64,000 bases of DNA from Candidatus Poribacteria bacterium. GTDB lineage: Bacteria > Poribacteria > WGA-4E > WGA-3G. The notes beneath the pieces were generated by a model that did no database searches, was not told the DNA's origin, and worked only from the letters and a program-made list of their open reading frames with translations. Location of the stretch: the NCBI GenBank assembly GCA_965197475.1, contig CBDANF010000003.1, positions 640,001 to 704,000 on the forward strand, written 5' to 3'. Every line of letters starts with the position of its first letter. Position 1 is the stretch's first letter. Shown here in pieces: positions 1,908 to 50,185 of this stretch. The translations under genes and the position numbers were made by a program.

Positions 1908-2891
1908 GCTCATGTAAAAAGTAAGTGCTATTTTTTCAAAGTTATGTTAGAGTGTTACCTATGGACTTTCCAATACAATCTCTCCTGGATGAAGAAAAAA
2001 CTCAAGCGTGGGTGTTGGATCATTTCCACCTTCAAGGGCTGTGTTGCCCAAAATGCCAAGCGAGCGTGGCGGAGGCACGCAAGTTCCGTCCGACTGAAAC
2101 AAGTGGTCTACAAGTGTATCGCTGCAAACACTGTGAGAGCATCTACAACCTCTATACCGGGACGGTCTTTGCTGGCACGCAGTTTCGTCCCTCACAGGTC
2201 GTTCTGCTTTTGCGCGGTGTCTGTCAAGGTGTTTCAAGTGCACAACTCGGGTGTGAACTGGGTCTAAGTCGTCAAACCGTTCTTTCTATAAGACGTAAAC
2301 TCCAAACTTCGGCAGAGCAGATACAACCCGAAGCTGCTTTACCTGATGCTGAAGTCGAAACAGATGAGATGTTTCAAAACGCCGGTGAAAAAGGCGATAA
2401 GCACGTTGATGCTTCGGATCCGCCGCGTCGGCGTGGCAATAAACGCAGGGGACATGGGACTTATGACAATGATCGTCCGCCTATTGTTGGGACGAAAGGT
2501 CGCGAAAGCGGTCTCCTGAGATTACGTGTTGTGCGGCACACCGATTCTGCGACGCTTTCAACACACGTTCATCAGTGGACGTTGCCGACTTCAACGGTGT
2601 ATACGGATGGTTGGCGTGGCTATAACCGTATTCAGCGCGCCCGTGAGATTGTTCTCCATAAGGATGGCGAGTGGGCAAGAGACGCAGACGGTGATGGTCT
2701 TTACGAGATCCATACAAGGACGATTGAAGGTGCCTGGACGACGCTGCGAAACTTCCTTCGTCCCTTTCGTGGCGTTCATAAAAAGTTCCTCGCCGGTTAC
2801 GTCGCAATCTGTGAGTTCGTCATGAATCTAAAAGCTGTCAGTGTTGATTTTATAGCAAAACTCGTCAAAAGCACTTACTCTTGACATGAGC
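1908..2891 (+). mobile_element. IS1595-family insertion sequence
   Basis: 22-bp imperfect terminal IRs: gctcatgtaaaaagtaagtgct (1908) and agcacttactcttgacatgagc (ends 2891), 2 mismatches. No target duplication visible. Confidence 0.85.
1961..2884 (+). CDS. IS1595-family transposase
   Basis: N-terminal Zn ribbon (CPKC...CKHC), HTH, and VETDE / YTDGWRGY / TIEGAW catalytic motifs. Confidence 0.9.
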   Translation: MDFPIQSLLDEEKTQAWVLDHFHLQGLCCPKCQASVAEARKFRPTETSGLQVYRCKHCESIYNLYTGTVFAGTQFRPSQVVLLLRGVCQGVSSAQLGCELGLSRQTVLSIRRKLQTSAEQIQPEAALPDAEVETDEMFQNAGEKGDKHVDASDPPRRRGNKRRGHGTYDNDRPPIVGTKGRESGLLRLRVVRHTDSATLSTHVHQWTLPTSTVYTDGWRGYNRIQRAREIVLHKDGEWARDADGDGLYEIHTRTIEGAWTTLRNFLRPFRGVHKKFLAGYVAICEFVMNLKAVSVDFIAKLVKSTYS

Positions 2892-3043
2892 GAGCCCGAT
2901 TTATGTGGATAGTAGACGTACAGGACCCTGATTCCTCCATTCAAAAACCGAAAACTGAATGCCTCTGCGGGTTAAGGTTTAGGGTGTAAATTTCAACCTA
3001 AGTCCTGTCTATACGTCTATTTTGCAAAATCTGGAGCACAAAA

Positions 3044-4117
3044 ATGCAAAAACTACTTAATCAGATTGCAGCACATTTTCAAATTAATCCGACTGATATT
3101 TCAATTGGAAAGATTCTACACGGGAAACGAGAAAAGCAGAACGTCTACCGCTTGATTATCAGAGCGAAAAGTTACCTGCTCAAACAGTACGAAATTACTG
3201 TCCCTGTGACCGAATCAGGTTTCACACCATTTCAAATAGAGAAGTTCACATTATCAACACTCTACAAGGGTGGGTGTCTTGTACCGCAGGTGGTGTGGGA
3301 ATCTGAACAACATCATGCATTATTACTCAATTGGTGTGGAGATGAGACTCTCGATTCCTTAGCACAGAGCAGTTCGGATTCAAGCCTTATGCCTATTCTA
3401 CATACTATTTTGATGCAATTGTGCAGACTTGAAGCCTTTTTTACGGAAAATAGAGCGCAATTCAGACCTTATGTTTTTCATTCTGAAATCAAAAAGACCT
3501 TACAACAGCTACTTGAACAAGGCAGAAAAACAGTCGGTTACTTGGAACATTTGAGTAGGACATCGCTCGCCTCATCACAAGCAGTGCAGCTTGATGCAGC
3601 ATGGCATTCCCTTTCTAATCAACTTATAGCGGCGCAGCCAACTTTGGGCGTTCTTGACTACCAAGCACGCAATATCATAATTGACGATGAACTTCCTTAT
3701 TTTATCGATTTTGCAAGCATTGGTTGGGATTGGCAGGAACGGAGGTTGGTGCAATTTTTTAATAGCATTGGTGCCTCCCAAAAAGATGCTAACTTTGTTT
3801 CTCTGTTGAACCGTGAATTAGTTGATGTGTACGCAAGTTGGGTAGCTAACCATCGCGAAAGGTGTTCCACTGCTGATATTGCAGCGCGTGTAGATGGACA
3901 CCATCTGCTTTTTTATCTCTCTGTTATCTATAAACTTTTGGAAGCAGTGGCAAGACCTGAAACGTCTGAAAACCAGATTCTGCTACAAGCATGGGGAGAT
4001 GTACGGTTGAGATTCCAACGTGCGATTTCGCTGATTGTTAACTCAAATTTGAGTGACGATGTATCCACGGCCCAAATCCGTGAAATAATCGGGAAATTTC
4101 AGGCTGAAATTTCTTAG
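3044..4117 (+). CDS. APH/choline-kinase-like phosphotransferase
   Basis: 357-aa ORF with GGAG RBS; DYQARNIII and FIDF kinase-like motifs. Confidence 0.65.
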   Translation: MQKLLNQIAAHFQINPTDISIGKILHGKREKQNVYRLIIRAKSYLLKQYEITVPVTESGFTPFQIEKFTLSTLYKGGCLVPQVVWESEQHHALLLNWCGDETLDSLAQSSSDSSLMPILHTILMQLCRLEAFFTENRAQFRPYVFHSEIKKTLQQLLEQGRKTVGYLEHLSRTSLASSQAVQLDAAWHSLSNQLIAAQPTLGVLDYQARNIIIDDELPYFIDFASIGWDWQERRLVQFFNSIGASQKDANFVSLLNRELVDVYASWVANHRERCSTADIAARVDGHHLLFYLSVIYKLLEAVARPETSENQILLQAWGDVRLRFQRAISLIVNSNLSDDVSTAQIREIIGKFQAEIS

Positions 4118-4175
4118 TATGGCATTTCGATTCTCATCCTGCTGTCTGAAAGTCGGAGTCATTAGAAATAGCAGG

Positions 4176-4586
4176 CTATTCTTCAGTGATAATTGTTTCT
4201 TCAAGTTCTGTCAAAAACTGCTCTACTTCCGGGGTTGACGGCTTAATTTCTTCCGTGGATAATCCTGGGTTATGAAATTTAGTTTGATATGAATTGAGTA
4301 ACTCATAGAGAGATTTTAGGTCAATTTGTCGATTGTTAATAGCATCGTGAACGTTCTGAAATTGATCCTCTACTTTTTCTTGTGGGATACCATCAGGACG
4401 GTTTGTTATGAGAAGTTTTTCAGTACCCTGTAAGGCACGGGCAGCCATCCAGTACCTGAAACCTTCAGCACCTCCGACTCGGTTGTAAACAAATACACCG
4501 ATACCAATACTCACAATGAGAATCGAAAGGAGAAAAATGAGTACCCGCCTGTAACAACCGCTAATCTTTTGTGCTATGAGTGACAT
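4176..4586 (-). CDS. hypothetical membrane-anchored protein
   Basis: GAGGGG RBS; single N-terminal hydrophobic helix. Confidence 0.7.
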   Translation of the reverse strand: MSLIAQKISGCYRRVLIFLLSILIVSIGIGVFVYNRVGGAEGFRYWMAARALQGTEKLLITNRPDGIPQEKVEDQFQNVHDAINNRQIDLKSLYELLNSYQTKFHNPGLSTEEIKPSTPEVEQFLTELEETIITEE

Positions 4587-45646: not shown

Positions 45647-45767
45647 CAGGACTTACGCAATGTGTTTAAAAGTCCCACTGATAAGGGGGATTTAGGGGGT
45701 TAAAAGCACAAATTCTGCCTATTTAACCCCCCTAACCCCCTTATCAAGGGGGAATGCGTAAGTCCTG
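45647..45767 (+). mobile_element. MITE, copy 1
   Basis: 13-bp perfect TIR caggacttacgca...tgcgtaagtcctg; internal GGGGG/CCCCC palindromes. Confidence 0.8.
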
Positions 45768-46012
45768 GTTAACTAAAGTTTGGACAATTTTTAGTAAAAT
45801 CTAAAATACATTTTCTTTAGGTTAGCGGCGTTTGTAGTCGCGCAATTCATTGCGCCTTTTACAATTGTAAGTTAAACTTTGTGATACCCATACAGTAAAG
45901 TGAGATCACTTATAGTTTGTATCAAATGACCCCATGAGTTATACTATTAGTATTCGTTAAACTAACGGGTAGATGTATTTGCATCGCCGACACTTTCTTC
46001 ATGGAGGTCAAT

Positions 46013-47695
46013 ATGGACCGTAAGAAGGATACCGCCTACGGTATCAATCGACTGGAATCCAAGAATGCCAGAGCCGCTATTATTCAGAAGATTTCAGCAG
46101 ACTTTAATCTAATGCCTCTCGTTGCTGAAGCCTACTATAAACAGATTTCCACCTACTTTGAACAGCACGCCGATGTGCAACTTACCTCAGGGCAAATCTG
46201 CTATGAGGCAGTCGCCGCTGAGGAACCCGCAGGCAAACACATCGCTTTAGCGAAAAAAATCTCCTGTCGACTCAAGCTCAACGATGTTGAAGCCGACCTT
46301 GAAGTTTTAGCGACTTATGGGCTCGCAGGTCTCAGACGGCATCGGATCCTCCGATTGACCCAAGAAGCTTATGACCAAGAAGCCTTGCTGAGTTATGAGG
46401 ATTTGGCGGTGTTATTAACCACCAGTCCTGCCACCGTCAAACGCGACATCCGAGCGTTGAAGCAGTCCGGCTATTTCGTGATGACGCGCGGGGCGAAACA
46501 CGACATGGGCCCGGGACTGTCTCATAAGACGCAGATTCTCGAGCTGTACTTCAAAGCATACACCTTCACCGAGATTGAGCAAAAGACGAACCACTCCGAA
46601 CGGGCTGTCTACCGCTACTTGAGGGACTTCACACAAGTCGCTACGCTCCATCATCAAGGCTTTCCTAACGCACAGATACGCCTGATCACCCATCTATCTG
46701 ACCGGTTGATCCGCGAGTATCTCTCACTCTATGAGGAATACCAACACACAGATCGCATGACCCAACTCCTTCACCCAGAACCTGAGGACACAAAAAAGGG
46801 GGGACCTCTCATGAGCAAACCTCTAACCCGCACGCAAATCAACGAGAAGAAATTCAGACGCATCAGCGATAAGTCCCTACGACAGTTGCTCATTCACCGC
46901 TTTCTCAATGACTATGGTTATGACAAAGGCGAAGTCACTGCCACCGCCATTGTTGATGATATTCTTAAGACCGTTGAAGACTATTTCGTGATTACCCTTC
47001 CTTTGGAGAAACTCGCCACCGGCGATCAACTCCCGGATGAGCGTTTCTTGAGTTATGGACAACTCGTTTGGATGGCCGTCCCTATTGAAGAGCATCCAGA
47101 AAGAGGAAAGTCCATCGTCAAAACCCGCATGAAACCCATCATCCTGACTTACCTCGCCGCAGAGGATATTGAATCCTTTCGCAACGGTTTCACCTCCCGG
47201 CAATTGCGGATCAATCGCTTGGTCCGCTGGTGTCATCAAGCTTATGACCAAGGGGCATTATTGACACAACTCGACTTGGCAGTTTTGCTCAATGTCTGCG
47301 ATGCCGTTGTCTGTGATTATGTTAATGAATGGCAAAAAACCACTGGAGAACTCTTGCCCACCCGTGGCAATATCCATGACTTATCGGGGGCTATTACCCA
47401 TAAGAAAGAGATCATAACCCTCTATCTTCAAGGACATCTCACCCCCAGGATTGCCGCAAAGACCAAACACTCTAAGGAGGCAGTTGATAGATACATTCGC
47501 GATTATGAGAGCGTCAAAGTCGTTCGGAAAGCAACCGCAGATATTGATAAAATCTCACAGATTACACGACTTTCTAAACGTGTCATCTCTCAATATCTCG
47601 ACCTCATACCGCAGCACCAACTCCAAGCCATAGATGCAGACCTTGCCAATTCAGACTCAAACGATGAAGCCACTCACCAAGGAGAAGCCCAATGA
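46013..47695 (+). CDS. tandem DUF1670-like protein (two homologous halves)
   Basis: GGAGG RBS. Both halves have GQ, AYDQ.ALL...DLAVLL, TRG..HD.....HK and HS..AV.RY.RD motifs; second ATG at 46811. Confidence 0.8.
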   Translation: MDRKKDTAYGINRLESKNARAAIIQKISADFNLMPLVAEAYYKQISTYFEQHADVQLTSGQICYEAVAAEEPAGKHIALAKKISCRLKLNDVEADLEVLATYGLAGLRRHRILRLTQEAYDQEALLSYEDLAVLLTTSPATVKRDIRALKQSGYFVMTRGAKHDMGPGLSHKTQILELYFKAYTFTEIEQKTNHSERAVYRYLRDFTQVATLHHQGFPNAQIRLITHLSDRLIREYLSLYEEYQHTDRMTQLLHPEPEDTKKGGPLMSKPLTRTQINEKKFRRISDKSLRQLLIHRFLNDYGYDKGEVTATAIVDDILKTVEDYFVITLPLEKLATGDQLPDERFLSYGQLVWMAVPIEEHPERGKSIVKTRMKPIILTYLAAEDIESFRNGFTSRQLRINRLVRWCHQAYDQGALLTQLDLAVLLNVCDAVVCDYVNEWQKTTGELLPTRGNIHDLSGAITHKKEIITLYLQGHLTPRIAAKTKHSKEAVDRYIRDYESVKVVRKATADIDKISQITRLSKRVISQYLDLIPQHQLQAIDADLANSDSNDEATHQGEAQ

Positions 47696-47762
47696 GACCC
47701 TAATCCTATGTTCCCGACGAACTTTACTTCGCAAAACCGGGGCAGGTGCCTTGAAAATATGG

Positions 47763-47791
47763 TTGACAACCGCTACCGGTTTTGCTATACT
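47763..47791 (+). promoter_or_regulatory. near-consensus sigma70 promoter inside the element's 3' non-coding region
   Basis: TTGACA-17 bp-TATACT with extended -10 TG. Confidence 0.75.
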
Positions 47792-47922
47792 TTAGACACG
47801 TTTATCGCTAAACGCATCATTTCTCAAAGAGGATGCTCGCGATCCCAACGCAACCCACTCATTAATGATCGCTGGGAAGCCAATAAACATCAACCTTCCA
47901 GCTATCCTATGGTCATTTGATA

Positions 47923-50085
47923 CTATTTCCTGATTACCATCTTCCGCGTAGCGGTGAAATCCCCTGCAGTGAGTGTGTAAAAGTAGATACCACTTGCGAC
48001 AGATTCACCCAACGCATTTTTGCCATCCCAATATGCAGCACGGTTGCGGTGATGATAGAGACCGACAGCTTGATGTCCTAAGTCAAGTGTCCGAACTAAC
48101 TTACCATTTGCAGCATAGATGGAGATGGTAACATCAGTAGGTGCTGCCAACTGATAAGGTATCCACGTTTCAGGATTAAACGGATTCGGATAATTTGGCA
48201 ATAGGGTAGTTTCTTTTGGTGTTAATGCTGCAAGGAGTTGTTCCAAGATGAGAATGCCGCGTTGAAAATCAGGGGTAGTTAGGTTGACTTCCCGGGCTTC
48301 ACGCAACCATCGTTGAACATCGGTAGCAGAGATTGTCTCCTTAAATCCATCCAGTAGGAAGGATAACGATCCGTTGCCAGCAGAAGGTGCTGCTACCATG
48401 TCACCGAATGTTGCGGAGACCATAATTAAATCAAATATATTAACAACCCCGTCCCCGTTGAAATCGCCAACGTTATCACCCTCTTGTCCGAAGTTTGAGG
48501 CAATCACAACAAGGTCTAATATATTGACGACTCCATCTTTGTTAATGTCTCCAGGGAGTATCGGAAATTCTGTTATTTTGGCATATTCTACGCGTAGTTG
48601 CGAAACTGCCCCTATGCTATTGCTCAATTCCACATCTGATAAACTTAAGGTGGAAGTTTTCGCTGCAACAACCTCAAAGGTAACTGTGGCGAGTGTGCCA
48701 GCACCGTTGCTTCCTGCAGCTGTAGACGTGGCAGCGAGTGTCACAGTATTACCTTCAACGACGGGTGCAGCAAAGGTCACACCGCTATGTAGATAGTCGC
48801 CGTTAGCACTCTCCACATAGCGGAGTGCAATGGAATCATAGTTGAGAGTAGCCTTATATCCAACGACATCTGCGCCAGCTTCAATAGTAAGAGCCAGTGT
48901 GAGTCGTTCTCCGACATCCGGTGATACCGTTGGAGATGGAGATAACTTGACAGAAGTCATTGTCGGATCAGTTGGCAGAATCTCAACGACGTAGTCGTAT
49001 ATAGGTCGCGTAAATTTAGTTTTAACTGTGACGAGATTCTGTTGGTTTTGTCCGTTTAAGTTTGCACACCGGATGTGATCACCACGCTTAGCAATAGTGT
49101 CGAATGCCTTCCAAAAAATTTTTCCACCGGCACTGTCCACGACAATATCCCGTAATTGTAAGTAACTACCATTCCTTGTGAGAATCTTTTGTCGGTTTTG
49201 TCCGTTGGGGTCCGCACACCAGATATTAAATGTTCCTGTATCATATTCATATTCTATCCAATAGATTTTATCAGAAGCGTTGTCCACGACAAGGGAGAAT
49301 AGTCCATCTGAAAGATTACCTTCGACAAGAACTTGTTGATTGTGTCCGTTAAGGTCGGCACTCCAAATGGTATCCGAATCCGTAAACCAGTCGTACTCAA
49401 CCCAATACATTTTTCCATTGTTGTTGTTAACAACGAGGTCGGATAGTTCCTCAACTTCATCACCCTTTGTGACAAGGGTTTGTAGGTTTTGTCCGTTGAG
49501 GTCCGCAGACCTGATATTCCCTATTTCTTCGTCCCAATCGTAGTCTGTCCAATATATTTTTCCATTGTTGCTGTCTACAACAAGGTCGTATAGTTCCCCT
49601 CCTGCATTACCTGTGAAGAGGGTTTGTAGGTTTTGTCCGTTGAGGTCCGCAGACCAAATGCCTTTCGTGTATGTGGTGCCCTTATCGTAGTTTGTCCAAT
49701 ATATTTTTCCATTGTTGCTGTCTACAGTAAGATTGAATAGGGATTCATTTTCACTGCCTATGACAAGGTTTTGCTGGTTTTGTCCATCAAAGTCCGCACT
49801 TTGGATACTATAGATTGTCTTATTAGTGTCAGAGGCAATCCAATAGATTTTTTCACCAGCATTGTCCACAACAAGTTCGTTTGCCCTACCCTCCATTGTG
49901 ACAAGGGTTTGTCGGTTTTGCCTATTAAGCTCGTCAGACTCAATGCTATAAGCTGTTCCGTCATCGTTGGCGGCAATCCAATAGATTTTGGAGTCTCCAT
50001 AGGCAACACTTTGGGCAATAACGGCTAACACTGTTAGCACTAAAGAAAACATAAATTTTTTTATATTGAAATTTTGATTTTTCAT
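47923..50085 (-). CDS. secreted protein: YWTD/LDL-receptor-like beta-propeller repeats, cohesin, dockerin and Poribacteria-type C-terminal domain
   Basis: Signal peptide; about 7 KIYW...I.SADLNGQN.Q.LV repeats; GTLATVTFEV; GDINKDGVVNILDLV twice; LLPNYPNPFNPETWIPYQL...TRKMVIRK. Confidence 0.85.
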   Translation of the reverse strand: MKNQNFNIKKFMFSLVLTVLAVIAQSVAYGDSKIYWIAANDDGTAYSIESDELNRQNRQTLVTMEGRANELVVDNAGEKIYWIASDTNKTIYSIQSADFDGQNQQNLVIGSENESLFNLTVDSNNGKIYWTNYDKGTTYTKGIWSADLNGQNLQTLFTGNAGGELYDLVVDSNNGKIYWTDYDWDEEIGNIRSADLNGQNLQTLVTKGDEVEELSDLVVNNNNGKMYWVEYDWFTDSDTIWSADLNGHNQQVLVEGNLSDGLFSLVVDNASDKIYWIEYEYDTGTFNIWCADPNGQNRQKILTRNGSYLQLRDIVVDSAGGKIFWKAFDTIAKRGDHIRCANLNGQNQQNLVTVKTKFTRPIYDYVVEILPTDPTMTSVKLSPSPTVSPDVGERLTLALTIEAGADVVGYKATLNYDSIALRYVESANGDYLHSGVTFAAPVVEGNTVTLAATSTAAGSNGAGTLATVTFEVVAAKTSTLSLSDVELSNSIGAVSQLRVEYAKITEFPILPGDINKDGVVNILDLVVIASNFGQEGDNVGDFNGDGVVNIFDLIMVSATFGDMVAAPSAGNGSLSFLLDGFKETISATDVQRWLREAREVNLTTPDFQRGILILEQLLAALTPKETTLLPNYPNPFNPETWIPYQLAAPTDVTISIYAANGKLVRTLDLGHQAVGLYHHRNRAAYWDGKNALGESVASGIYFYTLTAGDFTATRKMVIRK

Positions 50086-50185
50086 CTGATTTTCCTTTCT
50101 GGTAGTATTTGAGAGGGTATTAACCAAATAATGATGCACAAAAATGCAGTCCCTCTAAACAGCATTGCGTCATAACTAATTTAAA

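Follow-up and report, generated by a model that had tools for sequence, protein, structure and literature searches.

The window analysed here, a stretch of 64,000 nucleotides from a Candidatus Poribacteria bacterium (positions 640,001 to 704,000 of contig CBDANF010000003.1, GenBank assembly GCA_965197475.1), harbors an insertion sequence (IS) whose coding content is a pair of modules of the Pfam family DUF1670 (PF07900). The element is multicopy and recently active, with conserved ends and a fixed position and orientation at its targets, and we rate it as a new IS family with a transposition machinery unrecognised so far. The explanation that we slightly favor is that of an autonomous IS of an undescribed family, in which the DUF1670 pair directs transposition. 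A bolder proposal, which we put forward tentatively and at a little short of even chances, is that DUF1670 constitutes a new catalytic class, either a transposase or a site-specific recombinase, built from helix-turn-helix (HTH)-type modules working as an A/B pair or as a fused chain, with a target specificity that would be encoded in the protein and able to evolve.

The element shows the general features of insertion sequences: several copies, identical ends, different flanks, a target duplication and empty sites. In the genome of the window (5.7 Mb in 3 contigs, hereafter G000), there are 18 end-to-end copies of a 2005-bp stretch of the element, with identities of 93-100%, and two deletion derivatives, one of them with an internal deletion and the other a 432-bp piece made of both ends, similar to a miniature inverted-repeat transposable element (MITE). 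The occurrence of the same ends within different flanks bears out the IS-like nature that a preliminary description of this DNA had proposed. Some of the copies form subfamilies, such as a group of 10 copies that are 99.4-100% identical and another of 3 copies with 100% identity, all of them at sites of their own, and the copy of the window is a singleton with no more than 97% identity to any other. The terminal inverted repeats of 13 bp, previously described as perfect, are indeed so, and a search for the 13-mer with up to one mismatch yielded 41 occurrences in the genome, of which 40 belong to the termini of these 20 copies and one is a chance near-match with one mismatch, so that this genome contains no larger element with such ends. 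The ends and the flanking duplications of the window copy are as follows.

45912-47926, plus strand: whole insertion sequence, 2015 bp, with 20 copies in the genome; its ends are kept in other phyla and, within other Poribacteria, in 62 elements
45912-45931, plus strand: left end, ATAGTTT followed by the 13-bp core GTATCAAATGACC (45919-45931)
47911-47926, plus strand: right end, core GGTCATTTGATAC (47911-47923) followed by TAT; the final CTAT reads A + TAG on the minus strand
45910-45911, either strand: left copy of the 2-bp target duplication (TT); TT/TT flanks occur in 80 of the 81 complete Poribacteria elements
47927-47928, either strand: right copy of the 2-bp duplication (TT), which on the minus strand corresponds to bases 1-2 of the final Lys codon of the gene
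45906-45909, minus strand: orphaned original end of the target gene, with G, which was base 3 of the former Lys codon AAG, and then the old TGA stop; sequence tcac

The set of 81 complete elements comprises 19 from this genome and 62 from other Poribacteria; the former are 19 instead of 20 because the pattern used to find the ends did not pick up a G000 copy (C2:965029) whose left end is mutated. In all copies the common sequence extends 7 nt beyond the left repeat (ATAGTTT) and 3 nt beyond the right one (TAT), with an unequal distance from the repeat core to the tip at each side. The boundaries first given to the element, 45919-47923, were consequently too short. In other copies, the position of the old gene end reads TAA, TAG or TGA after a G or an A on the minus strand, which identifies the 'ta[c/t]' of the left flank as the old stop plus the third codon base and not as part of the element, leaving an IS at 45912-47926 with a TT on each side. 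A 5-bp 'AAATA' duplication was dropped for this same reason. The earlier claim that target duplication is absent is contradicted by these 2-bp repeats, and the empty site, which had been reconstructed as AGG AAA TAA, actually reads ...AGG AAG TGA. The duplicated dinucleotide is not always TT, since CG/CG flanks are found in loci of other phyla where the interrupted codon is an Arg (CGN; L114 and L116), as well as in a metagenomic relative with 43% identity (L137), and a single locus (L117) shows CG vs CT flanks.

The target of the element is equally well defined. In the window, the right end lies inside the last codon of the following gene:

47923-50139, minus strand: target gene, 738 aa, with low-density lipoprotein (LDL)-receptor class B repeats, cohesin, dockerin and a C-terminal type IX secretion system (T9SS) type A sorting domain

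The last base of the final codon of this gene and its TAG stop are now bases of the element (47923-47926). Its protein matches TIGR04183 (T9SS type A) with 32.3 bits, vs a cut-off of 23, at residues 650-737 of 738, and FlgD_ig with 37.6 bits. The combination of LDL-receptor class B (YWTD-type) repeats, cohesin/dockerin and a T9SS domain is an unusual mix for a surface protein of a sponge symbiont. The right end, and always the right end, adjoins an ORF (open reading frame) ending in ...RKM(L/V)IxK in 18 of the 20 copies of this genome, where 17 of the 36 genes that end in RK[MLI]xxxK-stop are occupied by the element. Among the 81 complete elements, 69 are inserted at ...[RK][KR][MLI]xxx[KR]-stop gene ends, 5 in the loop of a repetitive extragenic palindromic (REP)-like sequence, and 7 elsewhere (one of these on a truncated contig). 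Gene-end insertions have a single orientation, in which the right end adjoins the gene, and the crossover constantly falls between bases 2 and 3 of the last sense codon. On the gene strand, the final CTAT, which never varies, then provides A + TAG (AAG becomes AAA, CGN becomes CGA and AGN becomes AGA, followed by the stop), which restores both codon and stop and leaves the host protein unchanged. The same behavior is observed in loci from Gemmatimonadota, Ignavibacteria, Zixibacteria, Eisenbacteria and others (59-65% protein identity), where a right end GTCAT[AT]TGATACTAT is kept and insertions occur at ...KM/I-x-x-x-K/R-stop gene ends.

A different kind of target is found in two relatives (G035 and G026), where the element occupies the loop of the REP-like palindrome GAAACCGAGTTTTTTCTTCAAAACTCGGTTTC (for example, at G035:C1:683258-683285), a sequence with 73 empty copies in G035 and 37 in G026 that often occurs in short-period arrays (loci L026-L041). 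Empty REP sites typically read GAGTTTTTTCTTC with T6, and the occupied ones GAG-T6-[element]-TT-CTTC, a gain of 2 bp. As for the window copy itself, a 4-kb query against 39 relatives of the genus matched only paralogous genes with the T9SS C-terminal domain (CTD) and yielded no orthologous empty site, and the left flank of the window is located elsewhere in relatives; the empty-site evidence thus comes from paralogous gene ends and from REP sites, both of which do exist in empty form.

The coding content of the element can be summarised as follows.

46013-46810, plus strand: orfA, A-type DUF1670 module, with GGAGG before the ATG at 46013 and an in-frame ATG upstream at 46001; it runs into orfB in this copy
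46792-46803, plus strand: A6G6 run, one base longer than the canonical A6G5 in the alignment of 18 copies
46811-47695, plus strand: orfB, B-type DUF1670 module, 294 aa, whose winged helix (~128-192) is the candidate target reader
45917-45945, plus strand: possible orfA promoter (TTGTAT, 17 nt, TATACT), overlapping the left repeat and below the scan threshold

The repeats of the window copy enclose a single ORF of 564 aa (46001-47695), which HMMER assigns to PF07900 over two stretches (408 bits vs a cut-off of 25, E 1e-122), in agreement with the family suspected from the start. A single tandem protein is, in contrast to what had been supposed, not the normal state of the element, as 13 of the 18 full copies encode an orfA of 270 aa and an orfB of 294 aa, joined by an ATGA overlap with a Shine-Dalgarno-like run upstream, and two further full copies encode 269 or 289 aa plus 294 aa. 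The run reads A6G5 or A7GGAGG in other copies, and its extra base in the window puts orfA and orfB in one frame, resulting in the 564-aa fusion. Base 46798 is left out in every covering contig of all 4 sequencing runs, contigs which may stem from other copies. A programmed frameshift at the A6G run was ruled out by the ATGA stop/start overlap, which in canonical copies follows AGGAGG or GGGGGA, an arrangement that indicates translational coupling. Fusions between A and B recur independently in the family, either as another 564-aa ORF (L104) or as proteins of 529-559 aa (P0001-P0005) that cover 89-97% of the query.

Both ORFs are intact in 53 of 64 elements, and the ratio of nonsynonymous to synonymous substitution rates (dN/dS) lies between 0.068 and 0.111 in all 12 comparisons (6 element pairs and both ORFs; 3 of 9 pairs were skipped, as one partner had no two intact ORFs), values which indicate, from sequence comparison, that orfA and orfB are under purifying selection. 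No other conserved ORF is present in the element and none of the 81 complete elements carries an additional gene, so DUF1670 stands as its sole coding content, as first described. The preliminary description had named findings that would speak against a mobile element, and the comparison came out in favor of one: homologues of other Poribacteria and of other phyla share these ends, and empty sites occur. The candidate -10 box of orfA reads TATACT or TAAACT in other lineages. In two loci of one record (L068 and L070, OZ251998.1) the orfB match spans 1292 nt vs 882, and the left end is shifted by ~320 nt to the right of its expected position, which suggests an insertion of ~0.4 kb within the element.

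The family goes far beyond these copies. DUF1670 proteins make up 1,540 clusters at 50% identity (E <= 0.001), and PF07900 follows a patchy distribution, with 1-22 domain matches in each of 37 out of 121 Poribacteria genomes, and is also present in a control genome, that of Methanosarcina acetivorans. Some proteins contain two or three DUF1670 modules and reach up to 950 aa, with no known catalytic domain in any of them. Distant metagenomic relatives (L135-L137, 43% identity) repeat the layout of an A+B pair flanked by inverted repeats, in elements of ~1.7-1.9 kb; loci shorter than 6 kb were left out of one survey of relatives and included in the surveys of ends and targets. One of these loci (L137) bears two different DUF1670-pair elements in opposite orientation and separated by 11 bp (879-2581 and 2593-4455), whose end repeats are unrelated (GTATCACCTGATAC vs AGGACATTTGTCC). 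Proteins of the family are named at NCBI and JGI as DUF1670 domain-containing, hypothetical or "transcriptional regulator". A full-text literature search found no paper that mentions DUF1670 or PF07900, and titles and the opening lines of abstracts contained no description of such an element. To our knowledge, ISfinder holds no family of this kind, and the IS models of NCBIfam likewise gave no match above cut-off.

How the target is recognised can be approached through the lineage that shifted to REP-like hairpins. An element at a CTD gene end (L084) and another in a REP loop (L101) show 4 base differences within the last 115 nt of the right end, and their divergence peaks at element positions 1201-1300, with 27 changes in 100 nt vs 4-14 in all but one of the other segments. 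A comparison of three REP-type with seven CTD-type elements revealed 15 diagnostic positions in OrfB, 12 of them in residues 113-169 and including the start of the recognition helix of the winged helix, and only 2 in OrfA; the REP group comprises L098 and L101, in REP loops, and L107, at a non-REP site with ACTCGG at the same offset, and the count was made without L080, L104 and L110, which have no two intact ORFs. The bases that hardly vary among CTD sites are located 5-18 bp from the crossover and correspond to the R-K-M-x-I codons, and the three kinds of site used by the REP-type lineage have in common (AC)TCGG at +8 to +13. The target shift would thus track substitutions in the winged helix of OrfB and not the non-coding right end, and we infer from these alignments that this winged helix is the probable reader of the target.

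In the mechanism that we propose, OrfA and OrfB would act as a pair, as their recurrent fusion, their coupled translation and the near-palindromic sites at the ends (for example, GGTCATATGACC and GTATCACCTGATAC) suggest, and would bind those sites through a conserved C-terminal HTH. The pair would bring together both ends and the target, with the OrfB winged helix reading the R-K-M-x-I coding block 5-18 bp from the crossover, and would perform, or at least direct, the breakage and joining of strands at a 2-bp stagger, in a complex that may owe its polarity to the unequal spacing between core and tip (7 nt left, 3 nt right). If a circular or tandem intermediate forms, the outward promoter of the right end could drive orfA across the junction between the right end (RE) and the left end (LE), RE-NN-LE. 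The catalytic step is the weakest link of this chain, as no known active-site fold was detected.

Protein analyses bear precisely on this step. The model of OrfB, with a predicted local distance difference test (pLDDT) score of 87, begins with a small N-terminal domain (three helices, a beta hairpin and a helix) and continues with a winged helix at ~128-192, an HTH at ~193-245 and further helices. For the 564-aa ORF, Pfam yielded besides DUF1670 only HTH families (including HTH_23, HTH_28 and HTH_29), and NCBIfam only sub-threshold matches to regulators and to IS21, IS630 and IS1 transposases, in the case of the latter to their HTH parts (15 bits vs a cut-off of 100 for the IS630 model). The weak Foldseek matches are repressors, the DNA-binding domain of Tc3, Pax paired domains and a resolvase (1gdt), and the VIA-align match to the Tn3 resolvase 5cy1 (Z 5.6, 44 residues) covers the HTH only, with no match to PF00239 in Pfam. 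OrfA showed weak PHROGs matches to transcription regulators and replication initiators (best E 2.1e-5), OrfB had no match in PHROGs, PADLOC gave none, and a protein atlas returned only weak HTH clusters, with scores up to 0.81. The predicted complex of OrfA and OrfB scored 0.30 (mark 0.32), a value that gives no verdict on binding. The matches listed for the whole OrfB and for its residues 1-127 include no recombinase, nuclease or RNase H-like fold, and no domain of the DDE, HUH, serine-recombinase or DEDD type came up with Pfam, NCBIfam, Foldseek, VIA-align or profile searches, as the preliminary description had noticed by eye, in searches that are blind to a DDE fold changed beyond recognition. 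The element is also set apart from the HUH elements (IS200/IS605 and IS91) by ends that are inverted repeats and not hairpins, by the 2-bp duplication and by the lack of Y1/Y2 matches in Pfam.

A number of these and other results weigh against a catalytic or directing role of the DUF1670 pair. Neither Pfam nor NCBIfam detects a catalytic domain, giving only DUF1670 and HTH families; Foldseek found no PDB match for the OrfB model at E <= 0.001; VIA-align against 48,161 chains gave for residues 128-245 Z values of up to 6.4, exclusively for winged-helix and sigma-4/LuxR/resolvase-type HTH folds, and for the N-terminal residues 1-127 alone no Z above 3.9. The stand-alone model of this last region is mediocre (pLDDT 69), which makes the missing fold match weak evidence. 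A search with the family profile against PDB sequences returned nothing relevant, with 8vd6 ("CAP REPEAT", E 2.7e-4) as the only match. The conserved residues all lie in or between the HTH units, and could merely serve to read the conserved end sequence. No circular junction or excision product was seen, in contig data that cannot show circle junctions, and a single relic of an RE-TT-LE junction was found in 176 Poribacteria genomes. Finally, the correlation between target switch and OrfB probably rests on a single evolutionary event.

The junction relic (L089/L140, G098:C1:247726-247749) consists of a 16-nt right-end remnant (GGTTATTTGATACTAT) joined via TT to a complete left end. The sequencing data are Logan contigs from 4 runs, unable to show transcript starts, circle junctions or rare empty alleles, and among the joints listed for them there is none that goes back from RE to LE. 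RNA-library contigs cover orfA, orfB and the right end, with possible DNA carry-over. A deletion joint 45946>47775, which leaves a MITE-like element of ends only, appears in two DNA runs (X1 and X2). The 432-bp derivative of the G000 genome (C3:94120-94551), which also keeps both ends only, has the same kind of location as the full copies, a CTD gene end. Three copies of this genome are 100% identical; the left flank of C3:845190 is that of C2:1160548, and the right flank of C3:49950 is that of C2:1472043, which suggests recombination between copies, segmental duplication or an assembly of two strains (contamination 6.97%), and any of these could be the cause of the non-CTD right flank of C3:845190. 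A tblastn search of plasmids gave no match.

Among the rival explanations, the most serious one, which we nevertheless regard as doubtful, keeps OrfA and OrfB as mere readers of DNA, both ends and target, and leaves cutting and joining to a recruited host or unlinked enzyme, for example a housekeeping recombinase, a topoisomerase or a transposase encoded elsewhere. In the models, the whole protein consists of HTH-type domains and a small N-terminal domain in which no polar residue is invariant across the family, the conserved residues are located at the expected DNA contacts, and the preservation of the end sequences across phyla would alone be enough to conserve such contacts. Nonetheless, the element occurs in at least 7 phylum-level groups, as judged from record titles, which means that the helper would need to be universal; there is no second element with the same ends in the genome, A and B are the only genes in each of the 81 complete elements, and we know of no precedent for an IS that borrows its chemistry and still produces a fixed 2-bp duplication.

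A second rival, already hinted at in the preliminary description and in our opinion improbable, sees in each DUF1670 module a cryptic tyrosine recombinase (R...H...R...Y) carrying out conservative site-specific recombination. The R-G..HD..HK..HS..RY motif behind this idea is real and conserved family-wide: Q147 and G186 (OrfB numbering) are invariant in 59 sequences of both paralogues, and R139, D155, P183, R185, D190, H197, K198, H220, R227, Y228 and Y262 reach a conservation of 90% or more in the same set; R185, H197/K198, H220, R227, Y228 and Y262 are those that would favor this reading. R227 and Y262 are separated by 35 residues, a spacing that may be similar to that between Arg-II and Tyr in integrases. 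What finds no support is the structural likeness, since neither the integrase catalytic fold, with its R-K-H-R-H/W-Y residues, nor a topoisomerase IB fold is among the matches of Foldseek or VIA-align, and the segment is modelled as HTH units, a winged helix followed by a sigma-4/resolvase-type HTH, whose conservation can be explained by the recognition of a conserved end sequence. Tyrosine recombinases exchange strands over 6-8 bp, whereas the flanking identity is here just 2 bp, and the dinucleotide is TT or CG depending on the target, a variation that either a staggered cut with fill-in or a 2-bp crossover would produce.

We consider it very improbable that the element is non-autonomous, with A and B as passenger or regulatory genes moved by an unlinked autonomous relative; the failure to detect a catalytic domain would be accounted for in this way, yet no longer version with these ends was found in this genome or among the 81 elements, purifying selection acts on both genes within a selfish multicopy element, and true non-autonomous derivatives exist, which are those that have lost A and B.

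The right end of the element raises a last alternative, and its features are these.

47696-47926, plus strand: right-end non-coding region, 231 nt
47763-47791, plus strand: strong sigma-70-type promoter directed outward through the right end, with TTGACA, 17 nt and a TG-extended TATACT (11 of 12 positions match)
47858-47869, plus strand: internal site similar to the end repeat, CTCATTAATGAT here and CTCATTTGATGA in other lineages, a possible extra protein-binding site

The TATACT box of the outward promoter is present in all 47 distinct right ends aligned, most of them with a -35 box TTGACA, TTGATA or TTGGCA, and this conservation led us to consider a guide RNA like those of IS110. The region has no match in Rfam, and RNAalifold on 26 right ends gave 3 pairs, with no consensus structure and no covariation. 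A hairpin at ~47868-47905 varies regardless of the target: the right end of the CTD-inserted L084 is almost identical to those of L098 and L101, both in REP targets, and L104, also in a REP target, carries a CTD-type loop. The notion that an RNA from this promoter guides target choice, like the bridge or seeker RNAs of IS110/IS1111, could appeal to the promoter itself and its long non-coding right end, to the 2-bp core, the subterminal repeats and the insertion into repeats including REP-like hairpins, and to a loose resemblance of 47876-47898 to the target sequence, and was dropped as extremely improbable, given the results with Rfam and RNAalifold, a candidate loop that does not follow the target and the absence of any detected DEDD protein.

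Next to the left end of the element, the window contains a compound palindrome (45647-45767), with perfect arms of 13 nt (45647-59 and 45755-67) and a G/C-rich inverted repeat inside (45674-45751). The 13-mer of its arms has 178 occurrences in the genome with up to one mismatch, and a 19-mer of its core 64. Contig depth at the palindrome is very high in the sequencing runs, and it looks like another family of small repeats.

An autonomous IS run by a DUF1670 pair would offer a function for a Pfam family that is so far uncharacterised. As far as we know, transposase chemistries amount to a handful (DDE, DEDD, HUH, Ser, Tyr and Cas1), and a widespread active IS with none of the known ones would add either a new chemistry or a new way of borrowing one. 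Should DUF1670 be catalytic, its 1,540-cluster family, with members in bacteria and Methanosarcina, would represent a large unrecognised group of IS. Its homing is also unusual, as the last codon of T9SS cargo genes is selected across phyla, and the interrupted codon and stop are repaired. In this sponge-symbiont genome, about half of the matching cargo genes (17 of 36) bear a copy with a strong promoter firing antisense to them, which may affect the expression of secreted proteins and genome rearrangement. A compact system of two proteins, specific for site and orientation and with a specificity that few substitutions seem to alter, is likewise of interest for genome engineering.

Comparison with known mobile elements reveals a mosaic of resemblances. 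Like IS110/IS1111 elements, a family treated in a recent preprint (bioRxiv 10.1101/2024.04.26.591405), the DUF1670 element is strict in its targets, REP-like repeats among them, and has inverted repeats in subterminal position, a promoter within a long non-coding region and a 2-nt core on both sides; unlike them, it has no DEDD (RuvC-like + Tnp) match in Pfam or NCBIfam and no such fold among those listed, shows no structured or covarying RNA, and its change of target maps to OrfB. Serine recombinases, such as those of IS607 and the large serine integrases, share with it a 2-bp crossover, palindromic sites of the dimer type and a resolvase-like C-terminal HTH, whereas the resolvase catalytic domain was not detected here and the break falls 3 and 7 bp outside the palindromic sites instead of at their center. 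With IS630/Tc1-mariner it has in common a 2-bp duplication, terminal inverted repeats and a bipartite HTH region, but the duplicated bases are TT (80 of 81) or CG (L114, L116 and L137) and not TA, and the element encodes two paralogous proteins with no detected DDE domain. IS30 resembles it in a duplication of 2-3 bp, a preference for hot spots and abutted ends with a 2-bp spacer, of which the RE-TT-LE relic is the one example here, and differs in its DDE transposase, a type of enzyme that was not detected in the DUF1670 element. In Tn7, TnsA, TnsB and TnsC are the nuclease, the DDE enzyme and the ATPase, and insertion takes place downstream of the glmS stop with a 5-bp duplication; the DUF1670 element, with no known catalytic protein, is instead inserted inside the last codon, which it rebuilds, and its targets form a multigene family of T9SS cargo genes. 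What it shares with TnsD-directed insertion at attTn7 is the logic of a safe site, where the conserved 3' end of a coding sequence is read, at a fixed distance and in one orientation, and the gene product is spared.

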